DNA of 63,159 bases, filler included, from Craspedostauros australis (taxonomy: Eukaryota): NCBI GenBank assembly GCA_030167865.1. It is 12 parts of 12 records of this genome, joined end to end, with 100 filler letters (N's around TTAATTAATTAA, not from the genome) between each part and the next. Parts side by side here need not be neighbours in the genome. Positions count along the whole stretch, not along the records: positions 32,215 to 54,180 come from JALAGF010002468.1; 11 more parts are not named here. One strand, written 5' to 3'. This document shows, piece after piece, positions 5,020 through 60,326 of this stretch (position 1 is its first letter; every line of letters begins with the position of its first letter). The translations under genes were made by a program, and so were the position numbers. The notes under the pieces are model-generated. The model was not told the DNA's origin, did no database searches, and was given only the letters and a program-made list of their open reading frames with translations.

Positions 5020-7559
5020 TTACTGGTCCGCATCTGTCAACACTGAACAGTTGTCGTCCATGGCACTTGCCGTATCACTTCTGCTGCCCATTTTCTCCTC
5101 TCTCCACGTCTTCACTGTTCGAGAAATGCTCGGCTTTCTCATCGAACCCGCGTCCGAAACAGAATGAACCGGCGCATGGCTTGGCGTTCCTTCAGACGTC
5201 ATATCTTGGCTGGTGCTCGACTGGCCCTGACGTCGTTGTGTCGAGCCAAGGGGTGTGAATTGATCTGCGAGGCTGTGCTCCATCTTCATCTCGCGAACGC
5301 GATCTTCGTCAACGTAATTCCCGTAGGTTTCACGAAAGATCTTGCATTTGGGAAGAGCGCCCCAACTTTCATAGAATCCCAATGCCTCGGTGAAATAGGC
5401 ACGGATGCGAGGGTCTTCTGGGTTACTGCTCCTCAGCATGTACTTGCCTGCCAGCTCGCATGCGAGTCCTGCTTCGTGAAGGTGGTCTCCTTCCCGGGCT
5501 TGCTTGATGGCGTCATTGTAGCAGGACTCCACGAGAGCGGGCTTGGTGCCTCCTACCTTGATTGCTTTCCATTCGGCACGAAGAATCAAGTACCGATGGA
5601 ACGCGCACATTCCTTGTGTGTCACAGATGTGTTTCAGCTGCCGCTTTCGCTGTCGCAGCATCTTGAGGTATTTCCGCTTCTTCGTTTGGTGATATCGACG
5701 AGAGGCCATGACACCGCTGAGGATGGTGGAAGATGTAGAGCGGTCAAAGCTGGGATCAGGAGTGTCGTTTGTCATGAACAGATGGTCCATCTTCTCGGCG
5801 TGTTCAAACTTCCCGAAATACACTGCGATGTGGAGTCTGCACCAATAGGCAAGAGACTGGTCGTGTGGATCTGAGTGATAATATTTGTCAGCGTCCATGA
5901 GTGCCTCCCAGTCCAACTTGAGAGTGCCGCGCATGTAGTGGATGGTATTTGCCACTTCAGTGACCATGATTTTGCGCGTTTCGATTTTGTATATCTTCAT
6001 GTGTTCGATGAGAGAGCTTGCGGCTGCTATCACCTCGGTGATAGGGCGCCCGCCAAAGAATAAGGATTGAAGGCTGCCAACCTGAACGATTACGCTGAGC
6101 TCAACTTCACCAACTGCCATGGCAGACTTGTAAGCTTGTTGGAAGTCATGTCTCAGTACATCAACGGGCTTGAAGAATGGATCGATGATCATGACCGCGG
6201 CATAGTAGATCCATCCCTCTGCCTTCGTGCCACTGCCTACCCTGCGTATGATCTCCTTTGCGAGCTCGGAAGTCCGACAAGCACCCGCAAAATCACCCGT
6301 ATTTGCCTGAAGTATGGATACACCGCTCATAGCAGCAGCAGAATACTCGCAGATACCACACCTTCGGGTGACTTGGACCATTTGCGTGACACCCAATGTC
6401 CACGCCAGCAAATCTCCGACTGAGAATGCTCGGATGGTGATCTGATGCAATAGATGCAGCAAGAGTAGCGTTTGCGGATTGGTTGTGCTGGGATTTTGCT
6501 CGAAGAACTGCTCCATACTTGTCTTCTTCAAGTACGCTTTGACAGAAAGAAGCTGCGACACTGCGCGCAACACCAACCATCGCTTCGGATACTCCCCACA
6601 CAATTGAACGCCTTGTTGAGCCAACTGCAAGCCTTTCATATGCTCATTTTGCTTTCCCAACGCATTGGCCATCGCGATGTACGTAGGCAGCTTGTCATGG
6701 ATGGATTGGCCATGATCAAGCACCTCGTATCCCAACGAATACCCCAACTCGAATCGATTCAGTGTGAGCTCGATGTCGCACCGAGAGCGTACCAACCGAA
6801 TTATCAAGTCGTACTGATCTTGCCATGGGTCACCTCTCACCTTGCGCAATGACGTGCTTGCGAGCTGGAGGTACGTCGCAGCAGGCACCAACGCGGCAAT
6901 CTGGAGCGCGTACTCGCCGACCTGAAGATTGCGCCGAGTCGCTGCGAGGTGGTCCTTGGTTGGGGCGCAGTTGAGGTGATCGGCTGCGATGAAGAACACG
7001 CTGCTGTCGCTCCCTTGATCATTGGCGTTTTTCGTTTCGTCGCCGTTTGTACTTGTGCAGAGATTCCACAAGCACTGTCCGATCCGCAGGCGGAGCTTGA
7101 TGCGAGGCTCTCCGAAAGGTACGAGATTGCGTGCTGCCTGCTGGATTCGGTCGTGTGCAAATCGATAGCTGGCACCGCCGATGGAGTTTGCAAGGAGTCC
7201 CTCCAGAACGGCTTGCTCCAACCACTCTGCGAGTGGCTTTTCAGCTTTCGCCTTGGTAGCCTTGCCTGGATCTTTGCTGGTCATACTTGTGCCTCGGCTT
7301 GGGCCGGCGGGAGGAAGAGCGTGAGCAGGAGTAGGGAGGATGTCACTTCCCGTTGGATTGTGTTGCTCTTCGTACTCCCAGACCGCCTGTAGAGTATCAA
7401 ACTCAAACGACGATCGAATATACGATGCCAGTATCAGGGCCTTCTGCAATGGGACAGGCAAAGATCGCAGCTTGGATGAAATGAGCTGGACCACGTTGCT
7501 TGCTGCCGCCTTGCTGCCGCTATCCATATCATCATTGCCACTGGTGCCGCCACCCCCAT

Positions 7560-7594
<35 letters not shown>

Positions 7595-9189
7595 TCGTTG
7601 TGGCTGGTCTGGTTGAAACTGAGCAGAGAAGGATCGAGCTCCCACTGGAATGTGATCCGGCTGTACGTCAATGCCTTCTTGCGTTCCATGTCTTGCAGAA
7701 GCTGGATCGTGTGGAAAATGTTGCCGTCGGTCTGTTCATGCAAAAGCTCAACGACCTCATCCACAACATCATCGTCCTGATCGAACAATTGCGATACCCA
7801 ATCGTACAGCTCCTTTTTGCTGAAGTTCTGCAGATAGATGTCGGTGTGGGCCGTGTCATCCGGTGATGACGAATATTGCGATTGCAGCTCGCCAAGGAAC
7901 TTCATGAGGGGAAGGTCTGCGTTGAACTCCATCAGCTCGTTGGGGGATTGCGGATTGATCTCTTGCCGGATCGTGCCAATCCACAGAAGGTGAGGCTGAT
8001 GCATGGCGGTGGAGATGAGATCCATGCATTCTTGAGATGCCCATTGCAGATCATCGAGTACCATGACGACTGGATGGCGTCTTGATGAGATGAGGGACAA
8101 GAACTGGGTGAAAGTATACTGAAATCTGTTCCACGATGTCTCTGTGGATGAGATCTGCGCAGTTTGGGATTGTTGCGCAAGTGAGGATGTGATGGATGCG
8201 TCACATGTTTGATCTTCGCCGAAGAGGATTGAGAGCGCTGGTACGAGTGTCACAAGCACATCCTTCTGCTGCATTGTGAGGCTGCTCGATGCGATGATGG
8301 ATCGAAGGCGTTGTAGCTCTGATGATTGGCTCACGACGGGGTGGTGGCGGTGCTTGTCTGCGTTGCCATCACCAGTCATTGCTGCAGTCCTCGCTGCGCT
8401 ACTGGCCTCCCCGCTTTGTGTCATTGATGGGCGCGAGGAAGCAAGTTGCTTGCACCAATCGGAAAGTGACTGGGTGATGGCGGAGAATGGGTTGCCTTGC
8501 TGATGCTCCTGGAACTTCCCCTTGAGCACACGGACATGTTTTGTCCTGTTCGTGGTTCGGCCGGGATCGAGTAATTGGTCACAGAAGATATCCACGAGCT
8601 TCGATTTGCCTGTACCGCTGGTGCCCCAAACGAAGGCTGCTGGGGCGAAGGATCGGCTGGAGGATGCATCCACAGGTGATTCTGACTCAGGAGTATCGTG
8701 CGATGAAGTGTTCTGGGTGTTTCCCTTCGTTCGTTCGGTTGGTTTTCTTGGTTTGGAATGTTGCATCATCTGATCGAATACACGATGCAGCAATCGCAAC
8801 TCCTTCTCGCGTCCAAAGAATCCGTTGATGTCATCGCCATCAACTTTGCCGCCGCCACTGTCGATGTGATTGGAGAAGAGAGTGCTTGGGACCTCTGTCT
8901 CGAGCTCGGTCTCGTTGTATCCATCGTCGTAGAAGTCGTTGCCTGACGTCAAGACATTGTTGTGCAGCCGAAGCAATGCCCTGTCCATCGATGACTTCCG
9001 CGTGGGCTGAGCGCCTTGCAGTGCATCTGAAGCGGAAGCCGCAGTGGCGGTGGTGGTGGTGACAGTGGTGGTAGAAGGGGCCATCCTACTTGTAGAGTCC
9101 AACTCCTTGATGGATGTTGGGAAACGAATGGATTCTGATGGTACCACTGGGGTTATCGCTGAGGACCTCGAAGATGGATGAGGTGACAT
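5020..9189 (-). CDS. STAND/AAA_16 (COG3899-like) P-loop NTPase with C-terminal helical TPR-like region, 1389 aa
   Basis: FFGREKEL, Walker A GTSGTGKS, KGKF, Walker B VLDDLQWA, TDGNIFH, FAHDRIQQAA, and terminal A...YESWGA..K motif. The ORF is uninterrupted. Confidence 0.88.
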
Positions 9190-9225
9190 GTATTATGTTG
9201 AGTGTTGGGCGCCAATTGATGGTGC

Positions 9226-20783: not shown

Positions 20784-21147
20784 TGCAAACAGTGCACAAT
20801 CGCATCTTGCACCAACATCAACACCAAACATAACAGTAGTAGTAGTTCTCAACAACAATCAGTTTTGTGAGATCGAGACAGCTGATTTGTGTTGTGTTAC
20901 GAAACATTCGAGATTGTTCGATCCGATTCTGAGATGTTGAATCACGGGTGGAGATATGTCACGGATGTCAATTTCCCTCAACTCCCTGTCGACGTGTTTC
21001 TGAGTCGTTTTGCTTGTGTTTTTGTTCTTGGGTGCTGATTTTGTTCCTCGTTCTTGTTGCTGTTCTCGTTGCTGTCGTGGTTGCTTCTGTTGATGTGGTT
21101 GTGATGTTGTACTGCTCATAAAATCAAAACGACAACAACCAACAGAT

Positions 21148-21148
21148 C

Positions 21149-21192
<44 letters not shown>
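21148..21192. repeat. (CAA)n microsatellite upstream of the kinase
   Basis: Directly visible. Confidence 0.9.
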
Positions 21193-21273
21193 CCCAACAA
21201 TACAAACAAAGAAGCAACCATCACAGCAACTACACTAGCAACAGTTACAACAGCAACCACCACCACCAACACA

Positions 21274-22521
21274 ATGATCAACGACAACAACAACAACAAC
21301 GAAGGCGGTAATGCTGCTGTCGCCATCCACGAGAACAGCATTGGGAACAGTTCGGAAGGCTCCACGATCGAGGTCGGCAACTTCATCGGCCATGACAGCT
21401 TCGATTCCCGAAAGCTGTCAAGCGCCAAAGCAACGAAAGTCGCGAACTACTGCGTGAAGAAGTTCGACAACTTCATCCAGTCAGAGGATTACCAATCTCT
21501 GCAGCGATCGCCACTCACAAAGAAGCGCACAATGAAGAGACTGAGACACTCGCAGATCGAGATCGGTGAATTGCTCGGTGAGGGCGGCTTCAGCACGGTC
21601 TACGAAGTGCGCAAGTGCCTCAACGAGGAAATCGATGTCGACTCCGATCGCTGCGTCGTCAAGATGCTTCGAAAGAAGGCGCTGCAGAACCCGCCAATGC
21701 TCGCTGCCTGCGCCTTGGGCCTTGCCAAGGAAGGTCAGCTGCTCTCCATGCTGGAGCACCCGCACATCCTGACAGTCCGCGGCACGGCCACTGGCGGCCT
21801 CGCGAGCTACGCATCCGGACGCAACGACTGCTTCTTCCTCATTCTGGATCGTCTCAGCGAGACCCTGACAGATCGCCTCATCAATTGGTCCTACCGCCCC
21901 GAGCACGCTTCCAGATTCAGCCTCTTCCCAAAGCTCCGCAAGCAGCAGAAGGCATGCTTCACCGACCGCCTCGTCATTGCATCGCAGCTCGCCGACGCCG
22001 TTGCTCACATGCACAAGCACAATATCATGCACCGCGACCTGAAGCCAGATAACATCGGCTTCGATGTCGACGGATCATTGAAGGTGTTTGACCTGGACGT
22101 CGCCCGCGTCACACCGGAGGGCAAGACGGAGGACGAGACCTTCAAGCTCACCCAGAAGATTGGCACGCGCCGCTACATGAGCCCGGAGATCGGCCTGTCC
22201 AAGAAGTACAACCTCAAGTCCGACACCTACAGCTTCGCGATCATCCTGTGGCAGATCATGGCGCTGAAGCTCCCATTCTCGCAGTACTTCGACAAGCAGG
22301 CGCACACCACGCACGTGTTCGCGCAGGGAGAGCGACCCAAGCTCCAGAAAGCGTGGCCAACGGACCTTCAGACGCTGCTGTCGGACTCTTGGTCGAAGCA
22401 CATCTCAAGACGACCAACCATGCAGCAGGTCCACATCGAGCTGCAGCGCGAAATCAACGTCCTCACAACCAAATGGAGCACACCAGTCGCACCCACGGCC
22501 GCTCCTGTTGCTGACCAGTAA
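21274..22521 (+). CDS. Protein kinase (TKL-like), 415 aa
   Basis: GEGGFS, VVK, HPHI, HRDLKPDN, DLD at the DFG position, GTRRYMSPE, SDTYSF and RRPT. Confidence 0.93.
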   Translation: MINDNNNNNEGGNAAVAIHENSIGNSSEGSTIEVGNFIGHDSFDSRKLSSAKATKVANYCVKKFDNFIQSEDYQSLQRSPLTKKRTMKRLRHSQIEIGELLGEGGFSTVYEVRKCLNEEIDVDSDRCVVKMLRKKALQNPPMLAACALGLAKEGQLLSMLEHPHILTVRGTATGGLASYASGRNDCFFLILDRLSETLTDRLINWSYRPEHASRFSLFPKLRKQQKACFTDRLVIASQLADAVAHMHKHNIMHRDLKPDNIGFDVDGSLKVFDLDVARVTPEGKTEDETFKLTQKIGTRRYMSPEIGLSKKYNLKSDTYSFAIILWQIMALKLPFSQYFDKQAHTTHVFAQGERPKLQKAWPTDLQTLLSDSWSKHISRRPTMQQVHIELQREINVLTTKWSTPVAPTAAPVADQ

Positions 22522-34463: not shown

Positions 34464-37400
34464 ATGTTCCGTCTCGCCTCGCTGACCGCCAAGCGCATCG
34501 TCGCGAGCGTGTCCAACGCAAATGGAGCAGCACGGCGTCAGATGTGCGGATTGGTGGCTGCCATCGATGATGTCTGGACGACAGCGCCTACCTCGGGCAA
34601 CTGGCATGGCGATGTGCCCATCTTGGGCGACTCGGCCGCCATGTCCAAGACCGCCAATATTCTCTACCATCGCGGACCTGATGGTATGCAGGTTGCATCG
34701 GGTGCCGTGGGAAAGTACTCGCAAAGATGGAGTATGGGGTGAGTTGTTCGTCTGAAGTCCTTGTGCTATCATGGCCTCGAAAGTCATGGACGATTCCGAT
34801 TGCAAGAAAATGCGGAAGCGACTGCGACTGTGACTGCGAGCGTGGCATCATCTCATCTCAGTTCATCTCATCCTATCTCACTTCCTCCAACATCACAACG
34901 TATCACAACGCATCACACCGTATCACGCCGCATCATGTGACTTCTCACACTCTCATGCAATGCGCACGTACGAATACCAACAGCCACACCCGATTGGCAA
35001 TCGTCGATCCATCCAACCGCAATGCCGACATGCCCTTCCACATGAAGTTCGAAAATAAGAGCATCCATCTGGCCGCCAACGGCGAAATCTACAACCACAC
35101 AATCCTGTACGACGAACTTCAAGCCGACGGATGGAATCACGCGCGATTTTCCGGATCCGACTGCGAGGTCATCGGACATGCCTACGCCAAGTACGGCGGG
35201 CCCGCCACTGCTGCCAAACTCGATGGAATGTTTGCCTTCGTCGTGTTCGAAGAAGACGAGACGACGGGGGAGGTCCGAGCATTTGCGGCGAGGGATCCGG
35301 TCGGAATCAAGCCATTGTACTATGGTCGCACGGCCGGTTCCGATGCCAACGACGCATCGGCCTACGTGTTTGCATCCGAATTGAAATCCTTGGTGGGACA
35401 CGTAGATCCATCGACCGTCGTGAACGTTCCGCCGGGTCACTATTGGACGCCAGATGATGGTCTTGTCTGCTACTACAACCCGGATTGGCTTCGAAAGGTA
35501 CGGTGACGCAGCCCAATTGTGCAGAGATCTGATTTACAGGGGAAATCGTTCGTTCATGTTGATGTTGATGTTGACCATTGCTGCATAGAGATGGTCTGGA
35601 ACCAAATGGGGAAACGAGCAGGAATGGAATCATTTCAATGCCAACACCCGTGCCAACTCAAATGTCCAAACGTCACAAGAGCTGCCGTTTTGGCATGCGC
35701 GTGGAATAACAAGGCGCAATACTCGGAGCTTCATTCACAACACTTGCATCGTTCTTCGTCACTCATCATTCTTCATCGACGTTTTCTGCATCCTTCTTGC
35801 ATGTTCTGCTCACAATCGCGCACTCCCCCAAACTTCAATCAAACAACTAACATGCTCACATGCACGCAACGCATTCCTATTTCGGCGATTGTCATCGACA
35901 GGACGACTACGCTCCATGGACCGACTCTGCGCACAGCGTCACAGACGATGATATCAGAGAGGCATTCACAAAGGCCGTGCAGAAGCGAATGATGTCTGAT
36001 GTTGACTACGGTTTCTTCCTTTCTGGCGGCGTCGACTCCTGCATTGTGGCTCATGATCTGCTCCCGCTGTACAGAGAGTCTGGCGACGACCGTCCCATCA
36101 AAACCTTCACTGTGGGCATGGAGAATTCGCCAGACATGATGGCGGCCAAGGGCATGGTTGATGCTCTTGGCGGCGAAAGATACGTGGATCATCGCGTCCG
36201 CACCTTCACACCGGAGGAAGTGTTTGAGCTCATTCCCAAGATTGTGTATCACATGGAGACCTACGAGGCAGAATTGATCCGCAGCGCCATCCCCAACTGG
36301 CTGCTCGCTGAACGTGCTGCCCAGGATGTCAAGATGGTGCTCACCGGCGAAGGAGCTGACGAACTGTTCGCTGGTTACCTCTACTTCCAGGACGCCCAGT
36401 CAGCGACCCAAGTGCAGAACGAACTGCGAAGAATTTACGGCATGCTCGGCAACGTCAATCTTCACCGCACGGACCGCATGACCATGGCGCATGGCCTGGA
36501 GGCGCGCGTTCCCTTCCTCGACACCGAATTCACGAAGCTCGTCATGAGCATCGACCCAGCTCGCAAGATGGTCGACGCCGAGGCTGTCAAGACCAACAGC
36601 CGCGGGCGCGAGAAGACGTTCCTGCGCGAACTCTTCGAGGCTCCAAACTCCAACGGAGATTCCATCCCACGGCCGGTCCTCTGGAGGGCGAAGGCCATGC
36701 AATGCGAAGGCGTAGGAGAGGACTGGGTCTCCATCCTGCAAGGCAAGATCGCCTCCCTCGTTTCGGACGCCGAAATGGCGGAAGCAGCAACCGCGTATCC
36801 CATCAACACTCCGCACACTAAGGAGGAGCTGTACTACCGCAAGATCTACGACGAGCAATACCACGGCATGGAACATGCCGTCAACCTTTGGGAAGGTGGT
36901 GGCAGAGCCCTGGGTGCTGAATGGAAGAGCGAGATGTACACGCGAGAAGGTTTGGCCGATACCGACCTTCTGAGCCACGCGCTGCAGCAGCAACGAAGCT
37001 ACTCCACATCCAGCACGCCCGGCGGCTTCGGAGCAGGAAGAGGTCTCACCAGAGCCGCACACATGGGCACGACGACGGCGGCGGCAACGGGTTCGGCTAC
37101 AAGGGGCCGCCGGTCATTCTCCGTCAGCCCTCAGACATCGGAAGAGCCACTCGCCATCAAGGCGTCCCTCGAGGCACAGGCAGCAGCCTTCAAAGCCGGA
37201 TTCGATGAATTTGAAGCCATGATGACCACGGGAGGTGATGACCGGAGTCTGATTCTCGAAACTGGTACCAACAAGTACCACATCACGCCACAGCCAATCA
37301 ACGAGGGTGATATCTTCCGCGGATCATGCACAGGCAACCCACCAACTCGACGTGGGTACGATGCTGCGCATGCTCTGTACGCGAGCAAGTTGAAGGGATT

Positions 37401-38670
37401 GGAAGGCGAGCAGCTTGCAGCTGCTGTGCGAGAGGTGTTGTCAGAGCAAAGGGAACGGCTGGCAAAGGTGCTGGAACTCCCGGAGGGCGCCGAAGTCATG
37501 CTGGTACCATCAGGATCCGATGCCGAATACGTCCCGCTCGCCTTCGCTCGGGCTTTGCACCCCGGCAAGGAGATCGCCAACGGCGTCACGCAACTTCGAG
37601 AGATTGGAGCCGGGTCCGCCCCAGCCGCTGTCGGCAAGTTCTTCTCCACCCATGCTCCACTCGTGGGAGGCATCGACGGGGAGGAACGCCTGGCTGGTTT
37701 TAATGGAATTGACGGCGTTGCAATCGATGCGCGTGCGCGCAGCGGTGACGCAGTTGACGCTGTTGCTGAGATGAAGAGCTTTCTGGATGCTGCGGTCAAC
37801 GACGGCAAGTTCCCCATCATCCACGGTGTGTTCGGTGGCAAGACTGGAATGCGGGACGCCGCCATGCCCGCAAGCCTCGAGCAAGGTGACAAGTCGTTCG
37901 GTGTTATTGATGCATGCCAGGCTCGCTTCCAGCTCAAGGAATTGCATGGATGGATCGAACAGGATTCCATCATCTTGTACACGGGCAGCAAGTTCTACCA
38001 AGCACCACCATTCTGTGGCGCCGTCCTCATCCCATCCACCATCGCCAAAAAACTCCGCGAAGCCCAGGCTCCAGCTGACATGCTTGGCAGCATGGGGCTC
38101 GGTGCCTTCTTTACAGACAAGGAGCTTCCAGAATGCCTCGAGCACTGGAAGGAGCACTTGAAGGATGAGGCCGCCAACAATGTCGGGCTCGTCCTTCGAT
38201 GGGAAGCAGGGTTGGCGGGGATGGAGGCCCTGAGCTCCACTCCGGACGATCAAAGAACTGCCTCTGTGAAGGAATGGAGCTCCAGCGTCTCCACCATGGT
38301 CAACAACGAAGCCCAGCTCGATGTGTTCTGCTTGGACAGCGACATCGTGAGTCTGCGGATCGCCAAAGGTGACGATTGGTTGAGCATGAGCGAATTGCGA
38401 GATGTCTACCGCTGGATGAGCAAGGATGTTTCCTCAATCATTCCCGAAGCAACGGCGGAAGAGAAGCAGGCATTGTCGCAGGTTGCGTACACTGGTCAGC
38501 CGGTCGACGTCGCAGACTCGCACGCCATCATCCGCATTGCTATTGGTGTGGATGGCCTGCTGTCCTACCTGAACGACGCAGAGAGCACGCTGGCCGAGGA
38601 CAGGCTGACTGTCAACAAGTTGGCCGCTCTCGGAAAGTACTTTGACAAGCTCAAGCAGAGTGGGCTGTAG
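34464..38670 (+). CDS. Asparagine synthetase B-type amidotransferase fused to a C-terminal PLP-dependent (fold type I-like) domain; exons 34464-34738, 34984-35497, 35902-38670 (1185 aa)
   Basis: Amidotransferase/synthetase motifs MCG, HRGPD, GHTRLAIVD (made by splicing), NGEIYNH, SDCEV, LDGMFAF, ARDPVGIKPLY, LSGGVDS, GEGADELFAGY, EARVPFLD. C-terminal motifs PSGSDAE, VIDACQ, TGSKF. Both GT-AG introns keep the frame. Confidence 0.9.
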
Positions 38671-39164
38671 GAGCTTTGGCAAATTTATGCCCTCTCCACG
38701 GGTGCTCCGATCGCGATTGCGATTGCGACCGTGGAATGAAAATGTCAACTTGTGACAGCCACGCGATCGTGCGTACGTGCGTGCGCCGACATCTACATCC
38801 ATATCCAAGTTCGTGCTGCTAACATCCTCACGTAACCTTCTCCACAAAACTAGACACCCATACCCTTGACCAGGAGAACGCTGATGACGGAAATATTGAG
38901 TGGGCATACCCACCGCCATGTTTGCCGAGCGCTCTATGGTACGACCACCCGTACTCGTATAACGGCCATCGTTGCGATAATGAATACAGCTGCGAACAAG
39001 GCGACATTTCCATGCTGACTGAGCTCTCACATGAAAACCGAGGCAAGTGTGGTTTAACGCTTCAGTCCCACAAACTTTGGCCGAATCTCAACCAACCGAT
39101 GGAATTGCGTTGGAGAACGCTTTGCCCTGCGCATGCGATCGGACGGGGCGAGCGGTATGGGGCG

Positions 39165-40904: not shown

Positions 40905-41575
40905 TTGCAATAGGATGGAATCGAACAGCAGCGGATGAGTCAAACATTATCCTGTGTTTAATAGAATAGTTGGCTGAGAAACCAATATTAGTTTGTATAC
41001 GACAATGTCTATGTCTATGTCAAGTGATTGGAGTGGAGTGGGAAGAAGGATCATCCGTTTGATGTTTCATTCATCCGTTCGTTCCTTGTGTCTTTGCTTG
41101 TGTGTCTTTGCTTGTGTGTCTTTGCTTGTTGTTGTTGTGTGTGTGCGTTTGTATCGTGCAAAGAATGGTTTCGCTGATGAAATTGTGACGCATTCGTGCG
41201 GATTCCGAATATCCATGACTGGAAGTTTTCTACTTGCGTTGGTGATGACGTGAACGGAATTCCTCATTTGCTTCCACTCTTTTGGCTGCTCAGTTGTTTG
41301 CGGTTCGTTTGATTGTGTTGTCATCTGCTCGGGCAGTGTTGCAAGCGTGTTTCATGCTGACGTTGTGGCGATCGCTTTGTTTGGAGATGTGTCAATACGA
41401 CTAGTTGTTGGCAACGTGTTCATCTTTCCATCATCATTCTTCATCCCACAGTCTCATTCACATCACCTCCGCGTTCAGACCATCAGCAGCATCGCCATCG
41501 CCATCGCCATCGCCATCACCCTCGCACTACACTTGCACTCGTACTGCCCCGCACACCAATACGGCAACGACGGCA

Positions 41576-42436
41576 ATGACAACAGCCATGACAATGACAA
41601 GGTCAACCATAGCACCCCTGCTGCTGGTGTTGACGATGATGGCGCAAACGGCGCCAGTCGACGCGTTCTCGCCCATTCAAGCATTCTCAACCAAGACAGC
41701 AGCAGCAGCAACTGCATCCACGGCAGCATCCTTGCCCACGTTTGATTCTCTCACGCAATCCATCGGCACGGACAGCACGTTCCTCGTTGCGCTATCAGCA
41801 CCCTCTTTCCAAGGACTGCTGTCTGCCTACACCACCGTACTGCAACAACACACGTTGCCAACCCAAATTGTGACGGGCGCCACGTTGGCCGTCGTTGGCG
41901 ATGCCATCGCACAACGCACATCCGCGTCCAAAGTCTACGATTCGCGTCGCGCCGCATCGTTCGCTGTCTTCGACATGGCGTATCGTGTTCTGCAGCATTA
42001 CGCGTTTCCATGGATCATTCACAATTGCCATGGTCAGTTCTTGGGTCCCGCGCTGCACGATCCGTTTCTGGCGTCGACGTTGGAACAGACGTTGGCCAAT
42101 CAGCTCGTCATCGTGCCGTTCCTGTATTACCCCGCCTTCTTTGCATTGACGGGATTTCTGCAGGGTCTCACGCCCGATGGCACGGTGCAACGCGCGCGCG
42201 AGACGTTCTTCTTCCTGATGCAGCGCAACCTCATGTTCTGGATTCCGGTTCAGTTCATTCAATTCGGGTACGTTGCGGAGGAGTACCAAATACCCTTCGT
42301 GTGCGTGGCGGGTTTGATTTGGACCTGCATCCTGTCCATCTTGGCGGGATCGACGCAAGGGTATTCGAAGGATGACCCAGAAGGCGGTGTAGACGACGAG
42401 GTGATGGCGTCCGCCGCGGTGGAGACGAGCAACTAA
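41576..42436 (+). CDS. Mpv17/PMP22 family membrane protein with probable plastid bipartite presequence
   Basis: GDAIAQ, ANQLV..P.YYP.FF and FWIPVQFIQF motifs. The signal peptide ends VDA-FSP. Start could be 41576, 41588 or 41594. Confidence 0.88.
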   Translation: MTTAMTMTRSTIAPLLLVLTMMAQTAPVDAFSPIQAFSTKTAAAATASTAASLPTFDSLTQSIGTDSTFLVALSAPSFQGLLSAYTTVLQQHTLPTQIVTGATLAVVGDAIAQRTSASKVYDSRRAASFAVFDMAYRVLQHYAFPWIIHNCHGQFLGPALHDPFLASTLEQTLANQLVIVPFLYYPAFFALTGFLQGLTPDGTVQRARETFFFLMQRNLMFWIPVQFIQFGYVAEEYQIPFVCVAGLIWTCILSILAGSTQGYSKDDPEGGVDDEVMASAAVETSN

Positions 42437-56298: not shown

Positions 56299-56398
56299 NN
56301 NNNNNNNNNNNNNNNNNNNNNNNNNNNNNNNNNNNNNNNNNNTTAATTAATTAANNNNNNNNNNNNNNNNNNNNNNNNNNNNNNNNNNNNNNNNNNNN

Positions 56399-58262
56399 TA
56401 CCACCATGCGGCAAGGGACACAGGGTCAAGGGGGGGTTCCTGCACTACCACCCACTACCGTCAGACAACAAACAGGGGCGCCTGCCAATCCCAGTGCCAT
56501 GCCAATGCAGTACAACGTCAACCAAACCGAGCAAGACGGATACAGCCAGGTTGGTGATGTACAATCCTATGCCGTTGAATCGTCCTCCAGTGACCACACC
56601 GACGAGACATACGATGTGTATGATGCACATGACACAGATGAACGGTTCTTTACTGGCATGGTGCAGACTCACTACAGCCCCGTCATGCTCATGCCAGTGA
56701 CTGCACGACCACAAGATCCTCTGGCTACATCAACCAATGTACACATCCAGGCCAATGCCACAAACGTTGAAGAGCCAGCGTATGCAATCTGTGACAGTGG
56801 TGCACAATGCTCCATTCTTGGCAGCCTTGGGGATGCATGGCAGGTGGAGATCGTACACCCACATCGATTCATCAACATCATCGGGGCCATCCCATCATCG
56901 ATGCGTAAGAATGGACTCCGCGTTGTGTCCGCTGTCACCAAGGCAACGACATCAAATGGGAAGAACATCATCCTCCGAGCACACGAGTGTGCACTGAACC
57001 CCCTGAGTCGGGTGACACTCTTGTCAGAGTTTCAGCTGAGGGAGGCCGGATGTGTGGTTGATTCAGTCGCAAAGGAACACTACAAGTCCATGCAACCTCG
57101 TCAACACGGGACACAATTGTTCCATCCATCTGACGATGTGTGCATTAACCTTGTTCTCCACAATGCACTCATGACTTTCCAACTATCATCGCCAACAGAT
57201 GAAGACATTTCAACGTTGCCGTCATACACTATCACCAGAGATACGCCATGGAAGCCACGTCAACACACAGCACAACCAGACATTCACCAACCGTTTTCCG
57301 CATGCAACTCCATGACGAATTCCTGTCCTCACAAAGACCCTCCCGCCGACAATGTTGTTCGTGACAAGGACACTCCCATCATGTCAGTCGATCACATCGA
57401 CCTACCGGACCATCCCAGACACATCAACATGAATGAGTTCGTTCCCACACATGATGACGTCGTGGTGATTGACAATGATATCCCTGTCACCCAACAGGAT
57501 TTCTCTGTCCTTAAAGCATTGACCACTGTACCTGGGAAGCTCTGGATGCAACAGTCTCCGTTGGTGGATCCAGACGACACCACCGTTCCCGTTGCCAACA
57601 CACGCAAGGCATTGACCGATGACGTGTCTGCCTACGATGACCTGTCTGATGCCCTGCGGCACCAACACCATCAACGGCTGAACCAGACTGCTCCAGATGC
57701 TCAGAACGTCCATGATGTGGGATTCCGAACCAAGGCAAAGCATGTCATCGACGACCCGGCCAAGCTACAGCCCTATCTGGGATGGCGCAACATACGGATT
57801 ATCCAAGAGACAGTCAAACGAACAACACAAAACTGCAAAGCCGTCATCCGTTGGCCGATGATTCGACACCTTCGCTCACGCTTTGCTTGGATGCGACGCC
57901 CACGTCTCCGTGAGGTGGTGGCCACTGACACCTTCTTTTCCAATGTCCCCTCCTATGGTGAAAACTACACATGTGTCCAGGTTTTCTTTGGCACTTCATC
58001 TCACGTCATCAATGTCATTGGCCTACGGTCCAAACAACAGGCCCATGATGCCATCAACTACTTCATTCGTGATGAAGGTGCACCCTGGGCGTTTCGGATG
58101 GATAACGCTGGCGAACAAACTGGGGAGAAGGTTGACGCCATCCTCCGTGAACTGCACATCGGCGTGGAGCTATCCGAACCAGACTATCAGAATCAGAATC
58201 CCGCTGAACTCCGTGCCGTCAAGTGGCTGAAGACGAACGTGCACGCCATCCTTGACCGTTCA
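56399..58262 (+). mobile_element. Ty1/copia protease-integrase fragment, copy A
   Basis: AICDSGA, LLSEFQLRE, and integrase DDE motifs VATDTFF / RMDNAGE / QNQNPAE. Confidence 0.9.
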
Positions 58263-58362
58263 NNNNNNNNNNNNNNNNNNNNNNNNNNNNNNNNNNNNNN
58301 NNNNNNTTAATTAATTAANNNNNNNNNNNNNNNNNNNNNNNNNNNNNNNNNNNNNNNNNNNN

Positions 58363-60226
58363 TACCACCATGCGGCAAGGGACACAGGGTCAAGGGGGGG
58401 TTCCTGCACTACCACCCACTACCGTCAGACAACAAACAGGGGCGCCTGCCAATCCCAGTGCCATGCCAATGCAGTACAACGTCAACCAAACCGAGCAAGA
58501 CGGATACAGCCAGGTTGGTGATGTACAATCCTATGCCGTTGAATCGTCCTCCAGTGACCACACCGACGAGACATACGATGTGTATGATGCACATGACACA
58601 GATGAACGGTTCTTTACTGGCATGGTGCAGACTCACTACAGCCCCGTCATGCTCATGCCAGTGACTGCACGACCACAAGATCCTCTGGCTACATCAACCA
58701 ATGTACACATCCAGGCCAATGCCACAAACGTTGAAGAGCCAGCGTATGCAATCTGTGACAGTGGTGCACAATGCTCCATTCTTGGCAGCCTTGGGGATGC
58801 ATGGCAGGTGGAGATCGTACACCCACATCGATTCATCAACATCATCGGGGCCATCCCATCATCGATGCGTAAGAATGGACTCCGCGTTGTGTCCGCTGTC
58901 ACCAAGGCAACGACATCAAATGGGAAGAACATCATCCTCCGAGCACACGAGTGTGCACTGAACCCCCTGAGTCGGGTGACACTCTTGTCAGAGTTTCAGC
59001 TGAGGGAGGCCGGATGTGTGGTTGATTCAGTCGCAAAGGAACACTACAAGTCCATGCAACCTCGTCAACACGGGACACAATTGTTCCATCCATCTGACGA
59101 TGTGTGCATTAACCTTGTTCTCCACAATGCACTCATGACTTTCCAACTATCATCGCCAACAGATGAAGACATTTCAACGTTGCCGTCATACACTATCACC
59201 AGAGATACGCCATGGAAGCCACGTCAACACACAGCACAACCAGACATTCACCAACCGTTTTCCGCATGCAACTCCATGACGAATTCCTGTCCTCACAAAG
59301 ACCCTCCCGCCGACAATGTTGTTCGTGACAAGGACACTCCCATCATGTCAGTCGATCACATCGACCTACCGGACCATCCCAGACACATCAACATGAATGA
59401 GTTCGTTCCCACACATGATGACGTCGTGGTGATTGACAATGATATCCCTGTCACCCAGCAGGATTTCTCTGTCCTTAAAGCATTGACCACTGTACCTGGG
59501 AAGCTCTGGATGCAACAGTCTCCGTTGGTGGATCCAGACGATACCACTGTGCCCGTTGCCAACACACGCAAGGCATTGACCGATGACGTGTCTGCCTACG
59601 ATGACCTGTCTGATGCCCTGCGGCACCAACACCATCAACGGCTGAACCAGACTGCTCCAGATGCTCAGAACGTCCATGATGTGGGATTCCGAACCAAGGC
59701 AAAGCATGTCATCGACGACCCGGCCAAGCTACAGCCCTATCTGGGATGGCGCAACATACGGATTATCCAAGAGACAGTCAAACGAACAACACAAAACTGC
59801 AAAGCCGTCATCCGTTGGCCGATGATTCGACACCTTCGCTCACGCTTTGCTTGGATGCGACGCCCACGTCTCCGTGAGGTGGTGGCCACTGACACCTTCT
59901 TTTCCAATGTCCCCTCCTATGGTGAAAACTACACATGTGTCCAGGTTTTCTTTGGCACTTCATCTCACGTCATCAATGTCATTGGCCTACGGTCCAAACA
60001 ACAGGCCCATGATGCCATCAACTACTTCATTCGTGATGAAGGTGCACCCTGGGCGTTTCGGATGGATAACGCTGGCGAACAAACTGGGGAGAAGGTTGAC
60101 GCCATCCTCCGTGAACTGCACATCGGCGTGGAGCTATCCGAACCAGACTATCAGAATCAGAATCCCGCTGAACTCCGTGCCGTCAAGTGGCTGAAGACGA
60201 ACGTGCACGCCATCCTTGACCGTTCA
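58363..60226 (+). mobile_element. Ty1/copia protease-integrase fragment, copy B
   Basis: Same length and identical protein to copy A; four synonymous differences noticed. Confidence 0.9.
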
Positions 60227-60326
60227 NNNNNNNNNNNNNNNNNNNNNNNNNNNNNNNNNNNNNNNNNNNNTTAATTAATTAANNNNNNNNNNNNNNNNNN
60301 NNNNNNNNNNNNNNNNNNNNNNNNNN

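Follow-up and report, generated by a model that had tools for sequence, protein, structure and literature searches.

The window analyzed here is a stretch of 63,159 nucleotides, filler included, from the diatom Craspedostauros australis (GenBank assembly GCA_030167865.1). The gene of interest lies in the part taken from record JALAGF010002468.1 (positions 32,215 to 54,180 of the window) and joins an asparagine synthetase (AsnB), through a short linker, to a domain with the fold of pyridoxal 5'-phosphate (PLP)-dependent enzymes. Its linker carries two motifs of the kind cut by mitochondrial processing peptidase (MPP), and we think it probable, from sequence features, that its product is a mitochondrial precursor of the composite (tandem) kind, whose linker would be cut after import to yield two enzymes.

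The gene model was built from three collinear blocks identified by tblastn, with a 1195-aa orthologue, P0123, as the query (Table 1). The spliced coding sequence is 3558 nt long and has one stop, which is terminal. A single open frame on the plus strand (35851..38670), corresponding to exon 3, contains the stretch flagged in a preliminary description of this DNA. From its N terminus, the product consists of a mitochondrial-type extension, AsnB, the linker, and a fold-type-I PLP domain of ∼506 aa. The two domains appear independent in Pfam and AlphaFold2 (AF2) analyses: both are confident, and the predicted template modeling score (pTM) of 0.58 corresponds to no fixed mutual orientation. As RNA evidence, a small share of run X1 yielded a single 284-nt contig, at 38505..38788 only, which is uninformative for the linker.

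Table 1. Features of the AsnB-PLP gene (positions in the window)
Feature	Position	Strand	Basis or remark
Whole gene, 3 exons	34464..38670	+	Product 1185 aa
Exon 1	34464..34738	+	Splice sites read from sequence
Intron 1	34739..34983	+	GT..AG
Exon 2	34984..35497	+	Splice sites read from sequence
Intron 2	35498..35901	+	GT..AG
Exon 3, stop included	35902..38670	+	Splice sites read from sequence
N-terminal extension, residues 1-27 (MFRLASLTAKRIV...AARRQM)	34464..34544	+	Top presequence-composition window
AsnB (glutamine-hydrolysing), Cys28 to ...LLSHALQ	34545..36984, introns excluded	+	Pfam
Interdomain linker, residues 625-679, R/S/T/A/G-rich, disordered	36985..37149	+	AF2, composition
Site 1, R628-S-Y-S-T, putative MPP (+Icp55-type) cut that would release the AsnB C terminus	36994..37008	+	
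Met651 in spacer, candidate alternative start for a stand-alone PLP precursor	37063..37065	+	Sequence
Site 2, R666-R667-S-F-S-V, putative MPP site that would make the PLP-enzyme N terminus	37108..37125	+	
Site 2 core, R667 (RSFSV)	37111..37125	+	Pattern match
Fold-type-I (class-V-like) PLP-dependent domain, residues 680-1185	37150..38667	+	AF2 + VIA-align
Asp of VIDACQ	37909..37911	+	60-sequence comparison
Invariant Ser-Lys of TGSKF	37987..37992	+	60-sequence comparison

The linker and its conservation among diatoms

The linker sequence quoted in the preliminary description is in frame at 36985..37131 (49 aa; 36985..37140 is 52 codons). Its lack of acidic residues and its two R-x-[FY]-S sites stand as described there, but its length comes to 49 to 55 aa, depending on the domain boundaries, rather than ∼45 aa. 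The linker is the core of the longest run free of Asp and Glu in the 1185-aa product (residues 619 to 676; 58 aa, 36967..37140); the second longest such run is at the N terminus (residues 1 to 34). The only long segment of the AF2 exon-3 model (P0001) with a predicted local distance difference test (pLDDT) score of <50 spans its residues 373 to 427, which are residues 622 to 676 of the protein. We scored 25-residue windows for presequence-like composition, with 36 orthologues supplying N-terminal extensions for training: residues 3 to 27 (0.49) and 643 to 667 (0.46) ranked highest, and the next window reached 0.16 (mean, −0.52; standard deviation, 0.34). The pattern R-x-[FYL]-[SA]-[STHQV] has exactly two matches in the 1185 residues, R628 (RSYST) and R667 (RSFSV); when the 54-aa linker was shuffled 100,000 times with its composition preserved, 269 shuffles had two or more R-x-[FY]-[SA] sites. 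The linker thus holds an unfolded junction segment that, judged by sequence, resembles an internal targeting signal and carries MPP consensus sites, the second of which would be cut ∼10 residues ahead of the first helix of the PLP enzyme.

The relatives of the window gene are diatom genes. All 76 homologues of at least 899 aa have the Asn_synthase domain upstream of the PLP domain; fused homologues include MMETSP "type:complete" transcripts and genome models of Thalassiosira profunda, Nitzschia inconspicua, Mediolabrus comicus, and Epithemia. The 90% cluster of P0123 includes a transcriptome protein of Stauroneis constricta whose linker is the same as that of P0123. Since the complete MMETSP mRNAs and the S. 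constricta transcript carry both halves and the linker, the halves are not separate transcripts in these relatives, in keeping with the earlier proposal that one gene delivers both enzymes.

We cut linkers out between two fixed anchors; the 86 fused proteins that keep both anchors gave 84 distinct linkers of 6 to 79 aa, to which the following counts refer. The 2595 linker residues contain 113 instances of R-x-[FY]-[SA], versus 32 in 86,515 other residues, with zero, one, two, and three motifs in 21, 16, 44, and 3 linkers, respectively. The 63 linkers of the mitochondrial-type clades (targeting types are treated below) hold 113 motifs, versus 6.0 ± 2.4 in composition-preserving shuffles (maximum of 15 in 1000 shuffles). 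Site 1, taken as [FY]-S-[TS] in the first 14 linker residues, is present in 55 of these 63 linkers and in none of the 21 plastid-clade linkers; for site 2, taken as [RK]-x-[FY]-[SA] in the last 22 residues, the corresponding counts are 58/63 and 0/21. The family consensuses are Q-Q-[AS]-R-[AS]-[FY]-S-T-S at site 1 and G-[RK]-R-x-F-S-[TS] at site 2. The aromatic residue is Phe or Tyr in 40 of 40 distinct first sites and Phe in 42 of 42 distinct last sites, and positions recur as well: the Arg lies at linker offset 2 in 35 cases and six residues ahead of the PLP helix in 35 cases. When the window gene is compared with P0123, identity is 87% in AsnB, 77% in the PLP domain, and 16% (5/32) in the spacer between the sites, and both sites are retained. 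The motifs therefore persist in linkers that otherwise vary, and a check proposed in the preliminary description comes out in its favor.

N-terminal targeting type and linker motifs

The residues that precede the catalytic Cys28 (MFRLASLTAKRIVASVSNANGAARRQM) are basic and acid-free, with R25 at −3 from the Cys; on these sequence features, residues 1 to 27 are a probable matrix-targeting presequence. Cys28 (context MCGLVAAI) is the catalytic N-terminal nucleophile of AsnB and must be exposed. Extensions resembling a mitochondrial targeting sequence (MTS), of the MLRLG, MLRVG, or MYRLAS type, are found in 37 of 57 orthologues with a recognizable Cys anchor; they end in R-x-M or R-x directly before the Cys, which places Arg at −2 or −3 from this obligatory N-terminal residue. 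In the window gene Met27 directly precedes Cys28 (34542..34547), and R-x-M-C-G is found in most mitochondrial-type orthologues. A start at Met27 would yield a cytosolic fusion protein that lacks the presequence; orthologues with K-R-[HQK]-C-G have no such Met.

Among the same 57 fused proteins, the linker motif goes with the type of N terminus. At least one motif is present in 36 of the 37 proteins with an MTS-like N terminus; the remaining one, P0182, belongs to a plastid-type clade and is truncated at its 5' end. Motifs are absent from all 10 proteins in which a signal peptide precedes small-x-small-Phe (the ASAFAP-type plastid signal of diatoms), and at least one is present in all 10 proteins whose N terminus is <15 aa and unclassifiable. 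Four proteins of >1000 aa (P0130, P0140, P0146, and P0173) were left out for lack of a Cys anchor. Our 87-row tree places every one of the 21 motif-free linkers in one of two clades, of 7 rows (Shimodaira-Hasegawa-like approximate likelihood ratio test [SH-aLRT], 100) and 14 rows (SH-aLRT, 96), in both of which every known N terminus is of the plastid type. Both of our trees came from a quick LG+G4 search, with a long-branch warning for P0188 and P0197. The mitochondrial-type N terminus of the window protein, and the absence of linker motifs from the plastid-type clades, agree with the mitochondrial location proposed in the preliminary description.

One plastid-type clade (P0179 to P0184 plus P0096) has L-[YHF]-M-S-T-[MV]-x-E-V-[DE] in the linker in 7 of 7 rows. 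The pattern reported for the diatom stromal peptidase from N-terminomics is Leu at −2 and Met at +1, later removed, followed by acidic residues (PMC3774753). Because the clade's motif resembles that pattern, we raise, as a tentative and rather doubtful extension, the idea that the fusion is a retargetable self-splitting cassette, its linker suited to the processing peptidase of the organelle to which the N terminus directs it. If so, diatoms would supply mitochondria and plastids alike with polyproteins of two enzymes, and internal cleavage would be a further activity of the stromal peptidase. In one plastid-type subclade (P0154, P0166, P0158, P0405, P0407, P0409, and P0410), the linkers are long and rich in Ser/Thr and have in common F-S-[RK]-L-G-F-[SA]-G, which may be a remnant of a transit-peptide Phe motif.

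The two enzymes, their separate forms, and gene order

The upstream half has the features of AsnB within the N-terminal nucleophile (Ntn) amidotransferases: an N-terminal Cys, a class II GATase domain (exons 1 and 2; GATase_7, E = 2e-29), and an Asn_synthase domain (exon 3; E = 7e-61). The closest orthologue, P0123, taken at full length, scores 302.8 bits against NCBIfam TIGR01536, above its cutoff of 267.1, so that the profile cutoff is passed by way of P0123. The cutoff of NF006949 (499) is missed, P0123 reaching 448 bits and the exon-3 part of the window gene alone 300.5 bits.

The downstream domain has no sequence match in Pfam, NCBIfam, or PDB. Even at E ≤10, Pfam gave only a chance match to V-SNARE_C; there is no match to Aminotran_5 (PF00266), and we therefore class the domain as a fold-level relative only. 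Nor did any of 14 stand-alone PLP relatives of ∼460 to 510 aa match a Pfam family. At the level of fold, the "PLP" label of the preliminary description proved correct: the AF2 model (pLDDT, 96.5; pTM, 0.94) is best matched in VIA-align by cystine C-S lyase (C-DES, 1elq; Z, 22.5; root mean square deviation, 3.9; 349 aligned residues), followed by NifS-like proteins, alanine:glyoxylate aminotransferase (AGT), and PhnW, with ∼50 further fold-type-I entries at Z ≥18.4. The top Foldseek matches are group-II decarboxylases (template modeling score, ∼0.5), which differs from the class-V ranking given by VIA-align. The domain shares with class-V-like enzymes the fold (Z, 20 to 22.5; 335 to 357 aligned residues), the invariant Lys of Ser-Lys, and Asp-x-x-Gln; unlike them, it has ∼45 extra N-terminal residues, and identity is 8 to 15%. 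Residues S287, K288, D261, S128, and G129 (P0002 numbering) are invariant in 60 sequences of the family. By its fold, putative Schiff-base Lys, and putative pyridine-contacting Asp, the domain belongs with the fold-type-I PLP-dependent enzymes and would be expected to bind the cofactor. Its family is unnamed but large, with 1546 representative clusters at E ≤1e-3; protein-atlas matches are to "hypothetical protein" clusters only.

Both halves also exist separately. Stand-alone AsnB proteins of other diatoms are 634 to 710 aa long, and the complete-looking ones stop 2 to 12 residues past ...LLSH[SA]LQ, which is the position of site 1; P0404 of Chaetoceros tenuissimus, for instance, ends in LQEGKEEIAFES-stop, and the MMETSP-complete P0384 ends in LQEPKTEAA-stop. 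C. tenuissimus also has a stand-alone PLP protein (P0052). Such PLP proteins bear N-terminal extensions of their own. We counted 31 of 39 rows, leaving out 8 in which the domain starts at the N terminus: R-x-[FY]-[SA] lies within 25 residues of the domain start in 8 of the 31, or in 13 when Leu may stand in for the aromatic residue, and several others have R-M-[RK]-F-S-T, shifted by one residue. In Cylindrotheca fusiformis there are a stand-alone AsnB (P0369) and a protein with the same N-terminal extension, P0022; in P0022, as in P0032 and P0008, AsnB is reduced to its first ∼15 and last ∼10 residues, the extension and the linker are kept, and the PLP domain is intact. The catalytic Cys is lost in P0022 and P0032. 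These three look like gene-fission or exon-skipped derivatives, or they could be faulty gene models. Since stand-alone AsnB, stand-alone PLP, and AsnB-remnant copies exist, the two enzymes appear to work as separate polypeptides. Two independent proteins, as expected of a composite precursor, are thus recognizable both in the AF2 and Pfam domains and in the stand-alone forms P0404 and P0052.

Bacterial gene order gave no counterpart of the fusion. The preliminary description took the fused gene for a eukaryotic stand-in for an operon, a claim that we do not uphold: an AsnB of the window type lies beside the PLP homologue in none of 80 bacterial loci (L001 to L080), whereas a gene for an Orn/DAP/Arg-type (fold-type-III) decarboxylase directly follows it on the same strand in 73 of the 80, often with overlapping stop and start (for example, L002:4977-7623). 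In L002 only, a distant Asn_synthase-like gene lies two genes downstream. The PLP-decarboxylase pair looks like a conserved two-gene cassette; in several Bacteroidota it sits among polysaccharide-synthesis genes. There are also PLP relatives fused to an Orn/DAP/Arg-type decarboxylase (P0259), a group-II decarboxylase (P0258 and L057), and a HAD hydrolase (P0215).

The window contains no second PLP or AsnB gene. Its other large frames, 5020..9192 (−), 21094..22521 (+), and 41405..42436 (+), have matches to AAA_16 ATPase, protein kinase domain, and Mpv17/PMP22 and are ordinary nuclear gene content. Two adjacent 651-codon frames on the plus strand (56355..58310 and 58319..60274) encode products with 100% identity across 621 aligned residues; by eye they have aspartic-protease-like (DSGA) and integrase-like stretches, with no Pfam match at E ≤0.001, and reflect a tandem duplication of a retroelement fragment or else a duplication made in the assembly.

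Proposed processing, precedents, and alternatives

We infer import, cleavage, and the identity of the protease from sequence, as follows. Synthesis of the 1185-aa protein would take place in the cytosol, and residues 1 to 27 would direct its import into the matrix. MPP would remove this presequence (R25 at −3), and trimming of Met27 would expose Cys28 of AsnB. MPP would also cut the unfolded linker at the two R-x-[FY]-S-T sites, between the aromatic residue and the Ser, that is, after about Y630 and about F669, perhaps with Icp55-type trimming by one residue. The products would be AsnB (∼603 aa), a presequence-like spacer of ∼39 aa that would be degraded, and a PLP enzyme of ∼516 aa, the two enzymes in equal amounts. 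The linker would thus act as an internal cassette, resembling a targeting signal and excised at both ends.

The precedent for such excision is yeast Atp25, which MPP cuts three times, so that an internal targeting signal flanked by two sites is "spliced out"; the yeast MPP consensus given in that work is [R][AFR][FLY] before the cut and [AKLS][HSTQ] after it (Woellhaf et al. 2016, PMC5063612). The diatom fusion shares the Atp25 layout of N-terminal signal, first protein, signal-like linker with two MPP consensus sites, and second protein, and it is because of this layout that we read the gene as a composite precursor. The two differ in that Atp25 is fungal and pairs a ribosome-silencing factor with an unrelated mRNA-stabilizing domain, whereas the diatom gene joins two metabolic enzymes; furthermore, cleavage of Atp25 was demonstrated experimentally, whereas that of AsnB-PLP is proposed here from sequence. 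Fungal Arg5,6 (Neurospora arg-6) is closer in content: it too delivers two metabolic enzymes as one precursor, which MPP cuts at a junction that resembles a targeting signal, and this signal is conserved wherever the fusion is mitochondrial, mitochondrial location going with the tandem form (Friedl et al. 2020, PMC8734313). However, Arg5,6 has one internal site, joins enzymes of consecutive steps, and mirrors a bacterial operon; the diatom fusion has two sites and no bacterial AsnB-PLP adjacency. Among diatom enzyme fusions, some of which, as Kroth et al. (2008, PMC2173943) remark, may be cleaved posttranslationally, mitochondrial TIM-GAPC3 is likewise the product of a nuclear gene whose single mRNA encodes two metabolic enzymes joined by a short spacer. 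Its partners are consecutive glycolytic enzymes, and the portions of that article available to us describe no processing motif or signal-like spacer and make no mention of an AsnB-PLP fusion. A 2013 review of diatom amino acid synthesis, in the portion available, lists "one putative AsnB sequence" per genome (PMC3901274), and our search of the full-text literature found no account of an AsnB-PLP fusion as a composite precursor.

Several observations weigh against processing as proposed. The consensus applied is that of yeast MPP, which may not be that of the diatom enzyme, and the window gene departs from it in the residue after Arg, as at site 1 (Ser instead of Ala, Phe, or Arg). In Thalassiosirales-like linkers, site 1 is [KR]-A-A-[FY]-S-T, with no Arg at −2 from the aromatic residue. 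Our N-terminal classes follow home-made rules applied to the 57 proteins with a Cys anchor, and the first threshold (hydrophobicity of ≥2.2 over 11 aa) mislabeled obvious signal peptides and was replaced after the data had been seen. The link between motif and targeting type is not statistically significant, because it comprises only two independent switches (sign test, P = 0.5; 2 pairs). Some plastid-clade fusions (P0168, P0171, P0028, P0147, and P0079) have acidic linkers of 6 to 16 aa without a site; separation is therefore not required for activity, and the fusion, judged from these sequences, probably works uncut as well. Finally, R-x-x-S and R-R-x-S, as in R-R-S-F-S, fit the consensus of basophilic kinases as well.

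We considered four other explanations. The site-free acidic linkers, which suggest a functional fused state, would suit a stable bifunctional matrix enzyme, in which the uncut linker serves as a tether and as an internal targeting-like element that helps so long a precursor to be imported, for instance through binding to a receptor or chaperone. The presequence-like composition and disorder of the linker fit this as well, as do known diatom metabolic fusions with spacers of 8 to 25 aa, described in the available part of PMC2173943. We nevertheless regard it as unlikely: what is conserved is two cleavage-type motifs at fixed places rather than a general amphiphilicity, with a divergent spacer between them, and repeated splitting into stand-alone AsnB and PLP genes speaks against obligatory coupling. 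The PLP enzyme might also, or instead, be made from a start of its own, at Met651 or from an internal promoter, the linker being mainly its presequence. Met651 lies 16 residues ahead of site 2, several relatives have a Met in the spacer, P0010 begins at the equivalent Met, and stand-alone PLP proteins with their own presequences exist; but the leftover presequence, at ∼19 aa, would be short, P0010, whose contig is 1745 nt long, may be truncated, the conserved site 1 at the AsnB end would go unexplained, and relatives have full-length single transcripts. This makes an own start quite improbable.

We give slightly less credence still to the idea that the linker is a hinge, comparable to that of plant nitrate reductase, and that its motifs serve regulation by phosphorylation or as sites of the 14-3-3 type. 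A disordered, Ser/Thr-rich linker that fits kinase consensus would allow it, but the invariant aromatic residue and the Ser-Thr that follows are features of MPP sites rather than of kinase sites, the motifs vanish exactly in the plastid-type clades, and stand-alone relatives carry this motif where their N-terminal extensions end. Least credible of all, and very improbable, is an artifact, the linker being an unrecognized intron or a chance read-through between two neighboring genes. It is true that the linker is stop-free in all three reading frames, so that an open frame by itself proves little; the evidence for the linker lies instead in motif conservation, seen at the protein level in 63 distinct linkers, and in the transcript-derived orthologues that hold it in frame. 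In addition, linker GC content is 65.5% (65.5% at third codon positions), compared with 67 to 71% at third positions of the exons and 47 to 49% in the two real introns.

Should the gene indeed be a composite precursor, it would place such a mitochondrial precursor outside fungi and plants and would be the second case, after Arg5,6, of two metabolic enzymes delivered by one precursor. For annotation, database entries of 1100 to 1250 aa named "asparagine synthase" hide a second enzyme from a large PLP family. Natural linkers, available in dozens of variants that either have or lack the sites, offer a comparison that bears on how general internal MPP cleavage is, and the ∼50-aa linker is a possible tool for equimolar codelivery of two proteins to diatom mitochondria. 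In models of diatom nitrogen metabolism, glutamine-dependent asparagine synthesis would be mitochondrial, and in other clades it would be a plastid function.

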